Shown one piece after another: positions 5,173-25,562 of a stretch of DNA of 53,037 bases; the stretch's first letter is position 1, and each line of letters opens with the position of its first letter. The position numbers and the translations under genes were made by a program. The stretch comes from a virus (Duplodnaviria; Caudoviricetes). The notes under the pieces are model-generated. The model saw only the letters and a program-made list of their open reading frames with translations, made no database searches and was not told where the DNA came from. Location of the stretch: positions 1-53,037 of IMG/VR virus record IMGVR_UViG_3300032330_001444; one strand, written 5' to 3'.

Positions 5173-5988
5173 ATGATCATATGTGAAATAGATGGAAAAG
5201 AGTTTAAAAACGGCGGGGTATTTGCTAGATATTTAAAAAAACAATACGGATTAACCTATCAAAAATATTACCATCAGTACATACTAAAATCGGATGAGAT
5301 TCCAAAATGTAAATGTGGGTGTGGTGAAGAATTAGAGTGGAAAAATACTGGGTATAGAAAATATAAAGGGAATCATGGATTGATTCTACGATTGGCAACA
5401 AATAATCCGTGGGGACACAATAAAGATGCACAAATAAAATCCGCTGAAACTCGTAGAAAACAATACGCGTCGGGAGAAAGACATGGATGGTGTTACGGCT
5501 TAAGCAAAGAAACGGATGATAGAGTTAAAAACTTAGCAAATAAAACAAAAAATACAATATTAAATAATAAAGATGAATTAAAAAGAAGAAGTGAATTTAT
5601 GAAAAAACAAAGGAGAGACGGTGATTTACCTACTTTGTACAAAGAGCAATCTTCACAATGGAAAGGAGGCGTATCGTCTGTGCAAATTGTGGCTAGAAAT
5701 GATAAAAGGTTATATGAACAGTGGAAATATCCTATCTTAACAAGAGATCAATTTAAGTGTGTTGAATGTGGTCACAATAAAGATTTACATGTACATCATA
5801 ATGGTGAGAGATATAGTGATATAATAAAAAAAGTAATGACAATAGATGATTATGAAAATCTAGATAATTATGATGTAAAAAAAAGAATAACTGATAAAAT
5901 ATTAGATTATCATCTTAAAAACAACGTGTCGGGAGTTACGCTTTGTAAATCGTGTCACAACAAATTACATCCCAGTTTAAACTTTTGA
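5173..5988 (+). CDS. Free-standing HNH homing endonuclease (mobile element) with Zn-finger/NUMOD-like N-terminal modules
   Basis: CKCGCG, WKGG, and C-terminal RD.FKCVECG...LHVHH...GVTLCKSCHNKLH. Confidence 0.85.
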   Translation: MIICEIDGKEFKNGGVFARYLKKQYGLTYQKYYHQYILKSDEIPKCKCGCGEELEWKNTGYRKYKGNHGLILRLATNNPWGHNKDAQIKSAETRRKQYASGERHGWCYGLSKETDDRVKNLANKTKNTILNNKDELKRRSEFMKKQRRDGDLPTLYKEQSSQWKGGVSSVQIVARNDKRLYEQWKYPILTRDQFKCVECGHNKDLHVHHNGERYSDIIKKVMTIDDYENLDNYDVKKRITDKILDYHLKNNVSGVTLCKSCHNKLHPSLNF

Positions 5989-6003
5989 TATATTTATTAG
6001 TAT

Positions 6004-6912
6004 ATGGATCTAGGCAAGAAAATATTTGTAATATACCCAGGCAGATTTCATCCCTGGCATAAAGGTCACAAAGGTGTGTATAATTATCTAAGCAGCAAGT
6101 ACGGTGGCAATGACGTTTATATAACAACAACAGATGTAGTTGAGTTACCTAAGTCTCCATTTAGTTTTGATGAAAAAGTCAAAATGATGACTTTAACTGG
6201 GGTACCTATAAATAAAATAATTAAAGTAAAAAACAATTATAACCTACAAAGTTTAGTTAATCAAATTCCAATTGACATCAACAGAGATAGTATTATATTT
6301 GCGGTTAGTGAAAAAGATATGGCAGAAGATCCGAGATTTAGCAAATTCACTAAAAAAGATGGTTCTCCATCTTATTTACAGCCAATTCCTAAGAATTTAA
6401 CCAAGTTACAACCAGCTATAAATCACGGATATATTGACACTGTACCAACAACAGATTTTACCGTATTGGGTAAACCAGCTAGAAGTGCTAGCGAATTAAG
6501 ATCTCAATATGCTAAATTAAATCCTCAACAAAGAAAGTCTTTTATTGCGGATTTGTTTGGTAAGTATGACGACGGTGTATATAACATTATGAATAACAAA
6601 TTAGCATCCAGTGGAAGTTTAACAGAAAAGCAAAAGAGTATATTAAAGAAATTGATTGTGGGTATGATGAAAGAGGATGAGTCCAAAGTCAAAAACATGA
6701 AGAAGTTGGCTGATATGGCTTTATACAAACAAAGACAGGCTGAAGAAGATGATGCTAATGAAAAGTTAGATTCAGCTGAAGCTCAACAAGATGCTGCTGT
6801 ATCTGATGAAGATAAAAAGAAATCGGATGATTCAGTAAAAAAAGCTAAAGATATGGTAAAACGTGCTAATATGATGTCCCAAGCAGCTAAACATCAAATG
6901 CAATCAAGTTAA
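6004..6912 (+). CDS. HxGH-class (cytidylyltransferase-like) nucleotidyltransferase with charged helical C-terminal tail
   Basis: IYPGRFHPWHKGH motif, SPFSFDEK, AVSEKD, SASELR. Confidence 0.75.
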   Translation: MDLGKKIFVIYPGRFHPWHKGHKGVYNYLSSKYGGNDVYITTTDVVELPKSPFSFDEKVKMMTLTGVPINKIIKVKNNYNLQSLVNQIPIDINRDSIIFAVSEKDMAEDPRFSKFTKKDGSPSYLQPIPKNLTKLQPAINHGYIDTVPTTDFTVLGKPARSASELRSQYAKLNPQQRKSFIADLFGKYDDGVYNIMNNKLASSGSLTEKQKSILKKLIVGMMKEDESKVKNMKKLADMALYKQRQAEEDDANEKLDSAEAQQDAAVSDEDKKKSDDSVKKAKDMVKRANMMSQAAKHQMQSS

Positions 6913-21760: not shown

Positions 21761-21795
21761 AAGCCGGTGGAGTTTTTATACCCCACCGGCTTTCT
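21761..21795 (+). terminator. Rho-independent terminator-like hairpin
   Basis: AAGCCGGTGG / CCACCGGCTT stem with a short T tract after SSB. Confidence 0.6.
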
Positions 21796-21808: not shown

Positions 21809-22951
21809 ATGGCAAAAAAAAGTGTTACAAAAGATACAACGGGTCAACGTGACGAATTAGTTGAGTTGTTAGCAAATGAACTAAACAAAGCAAATAAAGA
21901 CGGTGGCAAGATTGCTTATTTCCTAGATGAACAGGAAAATCCAGCGGAAATTAGCGATTGGATTAGTACAGGTTCTTCTATTCTGGATCTAGCAATTAGT
22001 AACCGTCCTCATGGAGGTTTGCCTGTTGGTAAGATGATTGAATTCAACGGATTGGAAGGAACTGGTAAAAGTCTAGTTTCTGCACACGTTGTTGCTGACA
22101 CTCAAAGAAAAGGTGGAGTCGCTGTAGTAATTGATACTGAAAACGCAGCTGCGCCTGAGTTCTGGAAGAGTCTTGGTGTAGACTTGTCTAAGTTACTATA
22201 TGTTCAATGTGAAACCGTTGAAGATATTTTTGCTCAGATGGAGAAGATGATCGCAATTGTTCGTAAGAGCAACAAAGATCGTATTCTAACAATTATTGTT
22301 GATTCTGTAGCAGCAGCATCAACAAAGGCAGAACTTGAGAGTGACCATGGTAAGGATGGTTACGCAACTGGTAAATCAATCATTATCAGTAAAGCGATGC
22401 GTAAGATTACTACTATGATCGGTCGTCAGAAGGTTCTTACTGTATTCACTAACCAATTACGTCAGAACCTAAATGCTATGGCATTTGGTGACAAGTACGT
22501 GGTAAGTGGTGGTAAAGCACTTGCTTATCATTGTAGTGTTCGTGTTCGTCTTAACAACACCGGTAAACTCAAGAGGGGTGAGGAAATCATCGGTAATGAG
22601 TGTAAAGCAGTTGTTGTGAAGAACCGTATGGGACCACCACAACGTCAAGCAAATTTCGATATCTATTTTGATAGCGGTATTGCTGATTATGGTAGTTGGG
22701 TTAAAGTTCTAAAAGAACAAGGTCTAATTAAACAAGGTGGTGCTTATTACACATACAAGAAGGACAATGGATCGGAATGGAAGTTTCAATCCAAAGACTT
22801 TGTAACCACAATGCAGACTGACAAAGAATTGGGTGAAGAAATTTACTTGAAGATTTGTGATGCTGTAATTATGAAATACAAAGATCCTAATAGTCAAATC
22901 GTTGAGGATGCTGTAGTAGATACAGAAGAAGAAACTGCTGGTAACGAATAA
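21809..22951 (+). CDS. recA: RecA/UvsX recombinase (ATG at 21809 preferred over the GTG at 21767, which lies in the terminator)
   Basis: ISTGS..LD.AI, GGLP.G, Walker A GLEGTGKS, IDTE, IVDSVAA, FTNQLR, GGKAL.Y..SVR. Confidence 0.92.
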   Translation: MAKKSVTKDTTGQRDELVELLANELNKANKDGGKIAYFLDEQENPAEISDWISTGSSILDLAISNRPHGGLPVGKMIEFNGLEGTGKSLVSAHVVADTQRKGGVAVVIDTENAAAPEFWKSLGVDLSKLLYVQCETVEDIFAQMEKMIAIVRKSNKDRILTIIVDSVAAASTKAELESDHGKDGYATGKSIIISKAMRKITTMIGRQKVLTVFTNQLRQNLNAMAFGDKYVVSGGKALAYHCSVRVRLNNTGKLKRGEEIIGNECKAVVVKNRMGPPQRQANFDIYFDSGIADYGSWVKVLKEQGLIKQGGAYYTYKKDNGSEWKFQSKDFVTTMQTDKELGEEIYLKICDAVIMKYKDPNSQIVEDAVVDTEEETAGNE

Positions 22952-22964
22952 TAATACATTAATT

Positions 22965-23010
22965 GTTTTCCACACAGTCTAATATAGATGACTGTGTGGA
23001 AAACTTTCAT
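22965..23010 (+). terminator. Perfect 15-bp inverted repeat (terminator or regulatory hairpin)
   Basis: GTTTTCCACACAGTC (22965-22979) / GACTGTGTGGAAAAC (22990-23004), followed by TTTCATT. Confidence 0.65.
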
Positions 23011-23045
23011 TCGACTAAGATTTATTTAATACAAACATTCATTAA

Positions 23046-23174
23046 ATGAGCAACTTTGACAACAAAGAAATGAAGAAGTTATTTTCTTTATTTCAAAACA
23101 TAGAAAGCGATTCCGTCACCGGAGGACTTAAAAAATCACTTAATAGTGATGTCCTTTTGGTTGACGGATTGTAG
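23046..23174 (+). CDS. N-terminal 42-aa segment of the 5'-3' exonuclease (ends ...SDVLLVDGL*)
   Basis: Read by hand from ATG 23046: MSNFDNKEMKKLFSLFQNIESDSVTGGLKKSLNSDVLLVDGL-TAG; not in the ORF track. Confidence 0.8.
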   Translation: MSNFDNKEMKKLFSLFQNIESDSVTGGLKKSLNSDVLLVDGL

Positions 23175-24118
23175 TGAATACTTACATTAGAAGTTTTATG
23201 GCTATTCCTTCACTCAATGAAGATGGACTACATACTGGTGGTATTGCTGGATTTCTGAAGAGTATTGGATATGCAATTAAATTGCTTTCTCCTACCAGAG
23301 TTATTATTGTATTTGATGGTAAAGGCGGTAGCCAGAAACGTAGAAAGATTTATCCAGATTACAAAAATGGCAGAAAGACAGATATTAAACTTAATCGTAA
23401 TTATGAAGAATTATCTTCTTCACAAATTGAATCGGTTAATTTTAAAAAAGAATTGATTCGTACTGTAAATTATTTGGATACATTGCCTGTAACAGTTATG
23501 GCAATTGATCAAATAGAAGCAGACGATACAATTGCTTATCTGGCTAAAGATACTTTTAAAGACAACAATGTAACCATTATGTCTACAGATAAAGATTTCC
23601 TGCAGTTGGCAAGTGACAAAATTAAAATCTGGAGTCCAACCAAGAAGAAAGTTTTTGGATGTAAAGAAATATTGGATGAATATGGTATCACTTGTAACAA
23701 CTTCATCTTTTATAGAATTATGGAAGGTGATGTTAGTGATAATATTCCTGGTTTGGATGGTGTTGGATTGAAAAGAGTGGTTAAAGCATTTCCGTTTTTA
23801 TCAGATGGAAATCAAGCTTGTTTACAACAAATTTATAACTACTCTGAAAATCATCGGGGAGAATATAAAATTTATGAAACTGTATTGAGTAATAAACTAT
23901 TGATTGGTCGCAATTATGAATTGATGCAGTTACATAATACACAGATTCAATCTTTTACACAACTACGTGTAGAAGAAATAATAAATACTCCCGTTAGAAA
24001 AATTGATAAAATTAGTTTCTCAAAACTAATTACAGAAGACAAAATGTGGAACAACATTCCTAATTACCATATCTGGTTAAATGATTGTTTCGGTAAATTA
24101 AATAGTTTCGTAGAATAA
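23174..24118 (+). CDS. 5'-3' flap exonuclease / T4 RNase H-like, main body (gene interrupted)
   Basis: NTYIRSF, VFDGKGG...R...Y..YK..R, EADD.IA, STDKDFLQL, GDVSDNIPG..GVG.K. Confidence 0.88.
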   Translation: MNTYIRSFMAIPSLNEDGLHTGGIAGFLKSIGYAIKLLSPTRVIIVFDGKGGSQKRRKIYPDYKNGRKTDIKLNRNYEELSSSQIESVNFKKELIRTVNYLDTLPVTVMAIDQIEADDTIAYLAKDTFKDNNVTIMSTDKDFLQLASDKIKIWSPTKKKVFGCKEILDEYGITCNNFIFYRIMEGDVSDNIPGLDGVGLKRVVKAFPFLSDGNQACLQQIYNYSENHRGEYKIYETVLSNKLLIGRNYELMQLHNTQIQSFTQLRVEEIINTPVRKIDKISFSKLITEDKMWNNIPNYHIWLNDCFGKLNSFVE

Positions 24119-24179: not shown

Positions 24180-25562
24180 ATGGAAAACAAAAAAGCAATT
24201 GATTCATTAACAAAATACGGCCGTGACTTCCAAATCAAGTGTATTTCATGCTTAATATCTGATCGTTCGTTTATTGAACGCATCAACGATATTATCGAAG
24301 TAGATTTTTTTGAAAGTGATGCAAATAAGTGGGTTGTAAAAGAAAGTATTAAGTATTTTAACGAATACAAAGATCTTCCAACTTTAACAGTTTTTAAAAT
24401 TAAAGTTGATGAAGTGAATGATGAACTTCTAAAGAGAAGTATCGTTGATAATCTCAAATTAGTTTATCAAAAAGTAAGTGATAACGATTTGAAATTTGTT
24501 AAAGAACAGTTCTTGGAGTTCTGCAAAAACCAGAAATTAAAGAACGCAATTATTGAAAGTGCAGATTTATTAGCACTCGGTCAATATGAAAAGATCAAAA
24601 ACGTAGTTGATCATGCAATGAAAGCTGGTATGGAACGTAATATCGGCCACGATTATACCGAAGACGTTGAAAAACGTATGAGTGTAATGAGTCGTAATTG
24701 TGTCAAGACTAATTGGACTGAAATTGATACAATCATGGACGGTGGATTGGCTGCTGGCGAACTAGGTATTATTACAGCTTGTGCTGGTAGTGGTAAGAGT
24801 TGGGTACTATCTAAGTTGGGCGCTGAAGCAATGAAGCAGGGTAAGAATGTAGTTCATTTTACTCTTGAATTGAATGAAAATTATGTGGGTCTTCGTTATG
24901 ACGCTTGTTTTACTGGAATTGATTTCCAAAACATTCGTAACAACGTTGATATCGTAAAGCAGAAGATTGCGGATGTTCCGGGTAAACTAAAGATCAAATA
25001 CTTTCCAATCAAGACAGTTAGTGCTTATAGTTTGAAAGCACATTGTGAACGATTGGCTGTACTTGGTACTAAAGTAGATATGATTATTGTTGACTATGCT
25101 GATATTCTACGTCCGTCACAGAGTGAACGTAACAGTAACAGTTACAGTGAAGCTGGTGGTATTTATGAAGAACTTCGTGGTGTAGCTGGTGAATTGCAAG
25201 TTCCTATTTGGAGTGCTTCACAGAGTAACCGAGCTGCTATGGATGAAGATATTATTCAAGCCAACAATATTGCTGATAGTTATCGTAAGATTATGACAGC
25301 TGACTTCGTTATGAGTCTAAGTCGTAAAGTTAACGATAAACAGGCAAATACAGCCCGATTCCACGTAATCAAGAATCGTTTCGGTCCAGATGGTTTGACA
25401 TTTCCAAGTAAAATGAACGCTGGTTGTGGTCATATCGAAATCTATGGAGAAAATAGCCGTGAGGGTATGAGTATCTTGAATGAGATGATGGATGGTGAAA
25501 ATCAAGTCAAGAAAGCTCTAAAATCCAAGTGGAACGTGCATAATAACGATGACGAAGAATAA
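24180..25562 (+). CDS. dnaB: Replicative DNA helicase (DnaB/T4 gp41-like)
   Basis: GGL..GEL, Walker A AGSGKS, TLEL, IIVDYAD, SASQ.NR, ADS..K...AD, KNRFGPDG. Confidence 0.9.
   Translation: MENKKAIDSLTKYGRDFQIKCISCLISDRSFIERINDIIEVDFFESDANKWVVKESIKYFNEYKDLPTLTVFKIKVDEVNDELLKRSIVDNLKLVYQKVSDNDLKFVKEQFLEFCKNQKLKNAIIESADLLALGQYEKIKNVVDHAMKAGMERNIGHDYTEDVEKRMSVMSRNCVKTNWTEIDTIMDGGLAAGELGIITACAGSGKSWVLSKLGAEAMKQGKNVVHFTLELNENYVGLRYDACFTGIDFQNIRNNVDIVKQKIADVPGKLKIKYFPIKTVSAYSLKAHCERLAVLGTKVDMIIVDYADILRPSQSERNSNSYSEAGGIYEELRGVAGELQVPIWSASQSNRAAMDEDIIQANNIADSYRKIMTADFVMSLSRKVNDKQANTARFHVIKNRFGPDGLTFPSKMNAGCGHIEIYGENSREGMSILNEMMDGENQVKKALKSKWNVHNNDDEE

Follow-up and report, generated by a model that had tools for sequence, protein, structure and literature searches.

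A hairpin, a stop codon and a 5-nt gap in the first catalytic motif of a phage flap/5'-3' exonuclease gene: a candidate for natural translational hopping

The interrupted exonuclease gene

The virus record IMGVR_UViG_3300032330_001444 (Duplodnaviria; Caudoviricetes), a 53-kb stretch of 53,037 nt with a completeness rating of 22%, was analysed at its full length and is referred to below as the window. It carries on the plus strand a gene for a flap/5'-3' exonuclease (23046-24118), the coding sequence of which is interrupted within the first catalytic motif. The frame beginning at ATG 23046 contains an N-terminal coding part of 42 codons (23046-23171; MSNFDNKEMKK...VLLVDGL), which is homologous to the N-termini of uninterrupted relatives, and closes at TAG (23172-23174), followed by an in-frame TGA (23175-23177); direct reading of positions 23160-23177 gives GTT GAC GGA TTG TAG TGA. 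The +2 frame reads GTG AAT ACT TAC ATT AGA AGT TTT from position 23174, corresponding to (M/V)NTYIRSF, and is open to TAA (24116-24118). Its C-terminal coding part (23177-24118; 313 codons, NTYIRSF... to TAA) encodes the rest of the FEN N-domain and a putative H3TH-like domain, as judged from Pfam. Between the two parts lies a 5-nt coding gap, TAGTG (23172-23176), the TAG of which is in frame with the N-terminal part. The proposed take-off codon is TTG (Leu, 23169-23171), and the GTG at 23174-23176, which has its last two bases, UG, in common with the take-off UUG, is the proposed landing triplet or, alternatively, a restart codon. An RNA hairpin of 57 nt, identified by folding, z-scores and covariation, is located inside the coding sequence at 23112-23168.

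The list of open reading frames (ORFs) contains two exonuclease ORFs, of 42 and 314 amino acids. The 314-aa ORF matches PF02739 (5_3_exonuc_N) with an E value of 1.4e-27 and 96.8 bits (cut-off 34.3), and PF01367 with an E value of 1.7e-4 and 22.4 bits, under the cut-off of 40; the match to the PHROG 107 exonuclease has an E value of 4e-32. Since the PF02739 match covers profile positions 10-164 of 164, starting only at position 10, the 314-aa ORF is without the first hhhDG motif (VLLVDG), which includes the active-site Asp and sits in the 42-aa ORF. Judging from the reading frames, this motif and the remaining nuclease domain would come together on one chain only if the gap were hopped. Uninterrupted relatives read ...LLVDGLNTYIRSF at the junction, and therefore deletion of exactly 5 nt from the window gives the family sequence. 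An earlier note on this DNA, made from the letters alone, had described the exonuclease as split by TAGTG in its first catalytic motif (VDGL-TAG, then NTYIRSF in the +2 frame), restored by removal of exactly 5 nt and lacking the first motif in its longer ORF; all three descriptions agree with the profile match and the uninterrupted relatives.

A protein-guided scan of viral contigs yielded 80 loci, which together with the window make 81 sequences. Among them, 49 are intact (...GTT GAT GGC CTT AAT ACT, VDGLNT), 30 have the window's TTG TAG TG AAT, and two carry an in-frame 6-nt insert, TTG TAG TTA AAT. The comparison with homologous genes suggested in the earlier note thus finds the stop and the 5-nt offset to be identical in 30 of 81 close relatives, the window counted. 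Intact genes are common too: the corresponding pattern occurs in at least 120 viral contigs, and of 80 such matches listed, 79 are homologues. The +5 junction is present in 36 viral contigs, 34 of which came from one pattern scan, the other two being records L445 and L447; in a second +5 pattern scan, 36 of the 42 matches were genuine and six were unrelated DNA. In two DNA runs that are independent of the window, one of which belongs to another study, contigs align gap-free and keep the 5 nt (run X2, 23058-23697; run X4, 22950-23293). Since 36 viral contigs and the DNA contigs of two further runs show the same junction, it is real, far beyond chance, and the assembly error that the earlier note had listed among its options is refuted.

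Another contig of run X4 (same lake sample) joins ...GTTGATGGCCTT straight to position 23177, which is the intact allele; therefore one lake sample contains both intact and interrupted alleles. A contig of RNA library X16 (23041-23198) also retains the 5 nt gap-free, with just 22 nt to the right of the gap, which is below the bridging criterion of 31 nt on that side, and the junction lies outside the coverage of RNA run X17. All runs were examined as contigs, which are silent on expression level and transcript ends. Upstream, the X16 contig runs into the context of an endonuclease gene 3' end and not into the window's spacer; it thus derives from a relative that has the endonuclease gene, and its extent may reflect co-transcription or DNA carry-over.

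A blastn search of the region against cultured phage records gave no match. At the protein level, relatives were found in Microcystis phage Mel-JY01 (41%), Flavobacterium phage immuto (37%) and an uncultured 484-kb phage (42%), all uninterrupted, and among the cultured phage relatives no carrier of the interruption was found. Cultured relatives read IIDGMNLFIR, IVDSMNTFIR and IVDGLNLFLR, in which the Asp-to-Arg spacing is that of the predicted hopped product.

Stop-led gaps and the abutting hairpin

Interrupted exonuclease genes share one layout, namely, a Leu or Phe codon, a stop, two to four further bases and AAY-ACN. In 74 distinct junction contexts (+5, n=17; +6, n=49; +7, n=8) all three stop codons are used, the codon at the take-off position is always CTN, TTG or TTC, and the stop is always directly next to it. 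A scan of metagenome contigs for Asp-Gly-YTN-TRR-YTN-Asn-Thr identified 43 loci, comprising 38 exonuclease homologues and five chance matches; all 38 homologues, many of which are only remotely related to the window, show DGL-stop-L-NT[FY]IR, the stop being TAA, TAG or TGA. When the middle codon was left unconstrained in viral contigs, it was a stop in 45 of 45 exonuclease homologues with a 6-nt insert, and the five matches with a sense codon were all unrelated DNA. Since all three stops occur and near relatives swap TAA and TGA at the insert stop, a change of code is excluded, and the pattern argues that selection favours 'stop-ness'.

The same observations bear on stop read-through, or an altered genetic code, by which the enzyme would simply gain a slightly longer loop. 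Such an explanation could accommodate the 6-nt forms, which are in frame and would give DGL-X-L-NT. In the window, however, the TAG is followed by an in-frame TGA and the homologous sequence lies in another frame; the earlier note had rightly concluded from this that simple read-through cannot rescue the gene, and the frame change refutes read-through in the +5 as well as the +7 forms. Each of the three stops is found at this position, and the window contains no tRNA gene, hence no suppressor tRNA there. When the window was searched for in-frame stops bordered on either side by long open frames, seven places emerged, none with matching flanking triplets, so no other window gene combines these features. 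Every intact relative has the shorter spacing. Taken together, read-through is extremely improbable. A -1 frameshift was also considered and rejected: the -1 frame is closed by TGA (23162-23164), GAC GGA TTG is not slippery, and the product would have two extra residues.

With up to 12 nt left free after the stop, the scan revealed 7-nt gaps (CTC TAG CGTC, CTC TAA CGTC, CTC TGA CAAC and CTA TAG AAAA) and one +6 form with the landing triplet GTA. No gap longer than 7 nt was found in exonuclease homologues in scans permitting 35 nt or 12 nt, and the intron remnant envisaged in the earlier note gains no support from these scans, which show only 5-7 nt in homologues. The triplets flanking the stop in +6 forms are identical in their first two bases in 48 of 49 contexts (CTN-stop-CTN, TTG-TAG-TTA, TTC-TAA-TTA), the exception being GTA, while in both +5 lineages (TTG TAG TG and CTG TAG TG) the take-off codon and the pre-resume triplet share UG (xUG...GUG). 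In one viral contig (L306:1874), TTC TAA TTA combines a take-off Phe with a landing Leu, so that bases 1-2 match and the amino acids differ. Among intact genes (n=77), the codon at the take-off position is TTA in 20, TTG in 13, CTT in 13, CTA in 12, CTG in 8 and CTC in 7, that is, 33 TTR and 40 CTN, about equal. CUU is the commonest take-off codon in +6 genes (27/45), and the first base 3' of the stop is C in 41 of these 45. A stop followed by C is a poor termination context in Escherichia coli.

In the window hairpin (arms at 23112-23127 and 23150-23168), the 5' arm TCCGTCACCGGAGGAC pairs with GTCC..TTGG..TGACGGA, and the 3' arm ends at the Gly codon, immediately before the take-off codon. 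Its minimum free energy (MFE) is -30 kcal/mol over 106 nt (z -3.58) and -25.7 kcal/mol over 66 nt (z -4.98). The median MFE of 45 unique +6 genes is -25.0 kcal/mol (z -5.07), compared with -9.6 kcal/mol (z -0.67) in 75 intact genes (Mann-Whitney p 4e-16). Counted over distinct 60-mers, an abutting hairpin is found in 5/5 of the +5, 31/32 of the +6 and 7/7 of the +7 forms, a total of 43 of 44 interrupted genes against 10 of 75 intact ones.

The hairpin arms are unlike between clades, yet complementary. The Asp codon shows covariation at its synonymous third position: this base and its partner form GC in 17 and AU in 11 of the 28 sequences, without exception. A 15-bp stem was counted on one clade, the window's own hairpin class being aligned and not counted separately: 94.5% of its cells are paired, four pairs have double changes, and the covariation score was reached in 0 of 500 shuffles; when the stem is slid along the register, pairing is 25-76%. 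When applied to mixed clades, RNAalifold returned no more than the hairpin's 7-bp base, since the register of the inner stems varies from clade to clade. Judging from folding and covariation, the N-terminal codons are shaped to pair with the conserved hhhDG codons, a constraint that would account for the DSVTxGL...DVLLVDG shared by the interrupted alleles of the window's clade; N-terminal peptides vary widely between interrupted clades.

Several intact genes have hairpins of their own. Those with a strong hairpin at the Asp-Gly codons include L355, L351, L361, L369, L329 and L337. In the window's clade, the intact alleles L013, L002, L078 and L026 have a different hairpin, GGTGTTGGAA.../...TTCTGACATCC, of -17 to -22 kcal/mol, which ends about 15 nt before the Leu codon. 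The locus L025:2870-2992 combines a +5-type N-terminus (MSNFDNKEMKK...) and upstream spacer with an uninterrupted DGLNTY and no stable hairpin (-4.4 kcal/mol).

The TAGTG stop/start overlap had led the earlier note to propose two translationally coupled polypeptides, namely, a 42-aa peptide with the catalytic Asp and, after a restart at GTG 23174, a protein of 314 aa, which would assemble into an active nuclease. For the +5 form this proposal stands as a possibility: the overlap of stop and GTG is common to both +5 lineages, 6-11 nt upstream there is a weak purine-rich stretch, GACGGA, and genes split beside homing endonuclease genes have precedent in T4 gp39/gp60 and a split NrdA (10.1101/2022.08.31.505936). 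Purifying selection on both coding parts, presented below, would be compatible with it too. However, the 6- and 7-nt relatives keep the hairpin and the stop and have no start codon after the stop (CTN, TTA, GTA, CGTC, CAAC, AAAA), and their NT[FY]IR codons after the gap stay conserved; thus, restart is not the general mechanism, and a mechanism common to all forms is the more economical assumption. In addition, the region just upstream of GTG would be buried in the hairpin, and neither the required stop nor the same-box flanking triplets would have a role. A split enzyme is therefore considered unlikely.

The hairpin is also relevant to the possibility that the 5-7 nt are lost from the transcript, either by realignment of RNA polymerase after the nascent hairpin or by site-specific processing and ligation, to leave a continuous mRNA. 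The strong hairpin ends a few bases before the gap in the manner of an intrinsic terminator, short repeats flank most gaps, and the presence of the gap in translated RNA is an assumption of a ribosomal hop. Removal at the RNA level, however, gives no account of the gap always opening with an in-frame stop, and losing 5-7 nt from a transcript in this manner is, to our knowledge, without precedent. The contig of RNA library X16, which holds the 5 nt, argues weakly in the same direction, considering its 22 nt on the right side, possible DNA carry-over and the fact that contigs drop rare forms. Taken together, this alternative is very unlikely.

Selection on interrupted genes and spread of the module

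All 65 complete +6 genes (from 83 loci; 45 unique sequences) have an N-terminal part open over 31-48 codons and a C-terminal part open over 314-323 codons. In comparisons between interrupted genes, the ratio of nonsynonymous to synonymous substitution rates (dN/dS) is 0.03-0.11 for the C-terminal part at dS 0.02-0.7, and 0.12-0.32 for the N-terminal part; for the +5 loci compared it is 0.04-0.07 in the C-terminal part. The two deeply diverged +5 lineages, represented by the window and by the 303-kb record L445, differ by dN 0.19 and dS 1.2-1.5 in the N-terminal part and are saturated in the C-terminal part, and both ORFs are intact in each. On these rates, both halves are under purifying selection. 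In the family tree the interrupted state appears at a dozen or more places among intact genes, and one clade, with 17 unique sequences and all three stops, is wholly interrupted. The interrupted gene is the sole PF02739 match in L445, which is 89% complete, and also in three records rated 45-48% complete. Recent inactivation, the other half of the last option in the earlier note, is unlikely because both ORFs remain intact in the second +5 lineage (CTG TAG TG) despite its divergence to dS>1.

Between +5 loci, dS is 0-0.14 in the N-terminal module versus 0.8-1.4 in the C-terminal part. In a tree of the downstream 942 nt, +5 alleles fall into at least seven clades, beside near-identical intact alleles. 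By these measures the module spreads horizontally, as a mosaic, into diverged genomes.

A 310-aa ORF is located between the recA-like and exonuclease genes in 19 of the 30 +5 loci of the window's clade, in none of the 49 intact loci and in neither of the two +6 loci, and its stop overlaps the exonuclease ATG; in L038 it occupies positions 1954-2886. It matches PHROG 559 'HNH endonuclease' (2.4e-16) and PHROG 3339 'homing endonuclease' (3.9e-11) and, more weakly, the Pfam MTES_1575 restriction-endonuclease fold (1.6e-7, below cut-off) and NUMOD3 (0.012). In other interrupted clades the same place is occupied by an HNH-type gene of 199-211 aa, which matches PHROG 655 'homing endonuclease' (2.8e-49) and NUMOD3 over cut-off, and at other interrupted loci by a 335-aa relative of the 310-aa type. 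At least 400 nt separate the RecA match from the exonuclease ATG at 25 of 76 +6 loci (duplicates between collections kept; L306 overestimated) versus 1 of 78 intact loci. Elsewhere in some loci, the nuclease domain of this 310-aa type of endonuclease has weak matches (24-38% identity), at L020:1696-1890, L241:1309-1503, L056:5167-5574, and L240:1714-2382 and 5791-6024; further endonuclease genes or their remnants may lie near these loci.

Many interrupted genes have no endonuclease gene nearby, and the window is one of these: it carries the module without an endonuclease gene, none being found in the 94-nt spacer (22952-23045, plus strand) between the recA-like and exonuclease genes. The conserved upstream neighbour is a RecA/UvsX-like recombinase gene (21809-22951, plus strand) and the conserved downstream neighbour is a DnaB-like replicative helicase gene (24180-25562, plus strand), both identified by profile matches; a gp32-like single-stranded DNA-binding protein is also encoded nearby, as judged from Pfam and PHROG. 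The gene order is common to the window, Microcystis phage Mel-JY01 and Flavobacterium phage immuto. The listed recA-like ORF begins with GTG at 21767; since relatives begin with MAKK..., ATG 21809 is the likelier start. The spacer also contains a perfect 14-bp hairpin (22966-23003) with the arms TTTTCCACACAGTC and GACTGTGTGGAAAA and a 10-nt loop, TAATATAGAT, which is reverse-complemented in the relatives L001 and L003 and in one contig of run X4. This suggests that the loop flips by recombination between the arms or, alternatively, that the assembly is ambiguous here.

Such mobility raises the question of whether the interruption is no more than a scar, a homing cassette driving an inactive or crippled exonuclease allele of a gene that is dispensable or complemented by the host. 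The horizontal spread into many backgrounds and the coexistence of both alleles in one lake sample (X4) would fit a selfish scar, as would the many conversions that look recent, with downstream ORFs not yet decayed; the MobA element itself has been discussed as possibly mildly deleterious (10.1101/2022.08.31.505936). Against this, all 65 complete +6 genes, and likewise the complete +5 genes examined, are free of further damage, and dN/dS is low between interrupted genes, including those of the all-interrupted clade with its 17 unique sequences. The stop mutates only to other stops, and covariation maintains the hairpin. Furthermore, the 89%-complete 303-kb record has no FEN N-domain match besides the interrupted gene, and many interrupted lineages lack an endonuclease gene nearby. 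Thus, a selfish scar is distinctly unlikely.

A proposed hop and its relation to known recoding systems

The most satisfactory reading of these data, and probably the correct one, is that a programmed +5 translational hop makes one full-length flap/5'-3' exonuclease and that the interruption belongs to a mobile cassette like that of T4 mobA/gene 60. A +5 hop from UUG to GUG was among the options of the earlier note; it is favoured by the stop-led 5-7-nt gaps, the abutting hairpin and the selection on both halves, and falls short of proof. The hairpin, the link to homing endonucleases and the wider family of inserts were absent from that note.

According to this proposal, the ribosome would read to UUG (Leu, 23169-23171), where UAG would enter the A site and stall decoding. 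The peptidyl-tRNA-Leu would then unpair, the mRNA would shift by 5 nt (5-7 nt across the family), and the tRNA would re-pair at GUG (23174-23176) through two of three bases, with decoding restarting at AAU. The predicted product, ...VLLVDGL-NTYIRSF..., would have a spacing identical to that of all intact relatives. The hairpin (23112-23168) would be melted while the ribosome holds the take-off codon, and its refolding behind the ribosome probably draws the mRNA onward. The 5' stem-loop of T4 gene 60 has been proposed to act in this way, and its role in forward movement is currently discussed (10.1101/2024.12.09.627546). The module of hairpin, stop and gap would move among related phages by recombination, often with a free-standing homing endonuclease gene just upstream. 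Because the module often travels with this gene, the gap probably also shields its carrier from cleavage at the conserved site.

Several points weigh against a +5 hop. Translation across the gap is deduced from sequence. A +2 shift, from UUG to GUA and then GUG read as Val (DGL-V-NTY, one extra residue), would also restore the frame and may be used instead. Restart is possible for the +5 form, as GTG overlaps the stop in both of its lineages. In synthetic constructs the efficiency of hopping is low. UUG and GUG of the window agree at two of their three positions, and in some of the +7 forms (CAAC, AAAA) the match beyond position 3 comprises a single base or none. With these poorly paired +7 forms, the two-of-three match and the GTA landing, a simple matched-codon rule fails in places and, on the sequences compared, is not absolute across forms; the early patterns, moreover, imposed YTN on both sides, and only the free-landing scan is unbiased for the landing triplet. 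The ten intact genes with an abutting hairpin may reflect exact gap loss after 'hit and run' or hairpins that predate the gap. Finally, the case for selection stands on the older lineages, and in genomes converted recently an open downstream ORF carries little weight, because the module moves horizontally by homing.

A broader reading can be offered tentatively: hairpin, stop and gap may form a new class of recoding signal, in which a 5' spring drags the mRNA by a set 5-7 nt once the stop stalls the ribosome, re-pairing being helpful but not required, and which serves homing endonucleases of at least two families as portable self-immunity in a block of catalytic-site codons. The hairpin-stop-gap device may also throttle the output of the phage nuclease. 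By analogy with gene 60, marking conserved DNA of an active site while the gene is left alive may be a general strategy of selfish nucleases. If the hop is true, phages would have, in addition to T4 gene 60, a second bypass system. The dozens of natural variants (three gap lengths, three stops and many hairpins) would make the rules of short-range bypassing directly testable. Gene callers would list such nucleases as an N-terminally truncated ORF, here of 314 aa from GTG, plus an orphan peptide.

In T4 gene 60, the bypass insert prevents self-cleavage by MobA and persists after loss of the endonuclease, and inserts of this type occur with VSR-like or GIY-YIG endonucleases in metagenomes (10.1101/2022.08.31.505936). 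The exonuclease system is similar in that a phage gene of DNA metabolism is interrupted in a conserved catalytic region, with a stop right after the take-off codon, an mRNA structure and, in most forms, related take-off and landing triplets. Similarly, the module travels with a free-standing homing endonuclease gene just upstream and outlasts its loss, and different endonuclease families (HNH, VSR-like) alternate at one site, so that the gene 60 theme of a homing endonuclease and a recoding gap travelling together is repeated here. The two systems differ in gap length (50 nt versus 5-7 nt) and in the take-off codon, which is Gly GGA in gene 60 and Leu or Phe here. In gene 60 the stem-loop includes the take-off codon, whereas the long hairpin of the exonuclease genes lies wholly 5' of it; no Shine-Dalgarno-like element is evident in a gap this short. 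The target gene, a flap nuclease, and the phage group are different as well, and the exonuclease module is not homologous in sequence to the cassette of gene 60.

Another point of comparison is prfB, the gene of RF2, with its programmed +1 frameshift at CUU UGA C. There, as proposed for many of the +6 genes, tRNA-Leu sits on CUU in the P site while the A site holds a stop before C, a combination that terminates poorly. In prfB, however, the ribosome shifts by +1 to a codon that overlaps the first, helped by a Shine-Dalgarno-like element upstream, whereas the shift proposed here spans 5-7 nt, reaches a non-overlapping triplet and is associated with a hairpin.

Short inserts in coding sequences that are neutralised at translation by means of a hard-to-decode A-site codon are known as the 'byps' of Magnusiomyces capitatus mitochondria (PMC5009743), and UUA-mediated bypass is a candidate mechanism in terminase genes of Streptomyces phages (PMC10732093). 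In these other organisms the codon is an unused or rare sense codon rather than a stop, and neither an abutting 5' hairpin nor an endonuclease cassette is known to have been described for them. The literature searched, which did not extend to subscription journals, contained no paper describing an exonuclease hop system and no later report of a natural stop-hop. Inserts of the byps and UUA type are 27-55 nt long, longer than those considered here.

A mechanistic counterpart is the synthetic 'stop-hop' of E. coli, in which 9 nt specify one amino acid and for which, in nature, 'no occurences are known' according to a 2016 review (PMC5009743); +5 and +6 hops are named in the title of Weiss et al. 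1987, cited therein. Matched codons flank the stop, comparable to the same-box triplets of most +6 exonuclease genes, and a slow-to-decode stop in the A site acts as the trigger (PMC5009743). The synthetic stop-hops are laboratory constructs that have no stimulatory signals and work at low efficiency, whereas the arrangement in the exonuclease genes is natural, kept over deep divergence and joined to a dedicated hairpin. If ribosomes do hop at this site, it would represent a natural, conserved form of the stop-hop, which, according to the 2016 review, is known only from laboratory constructs.

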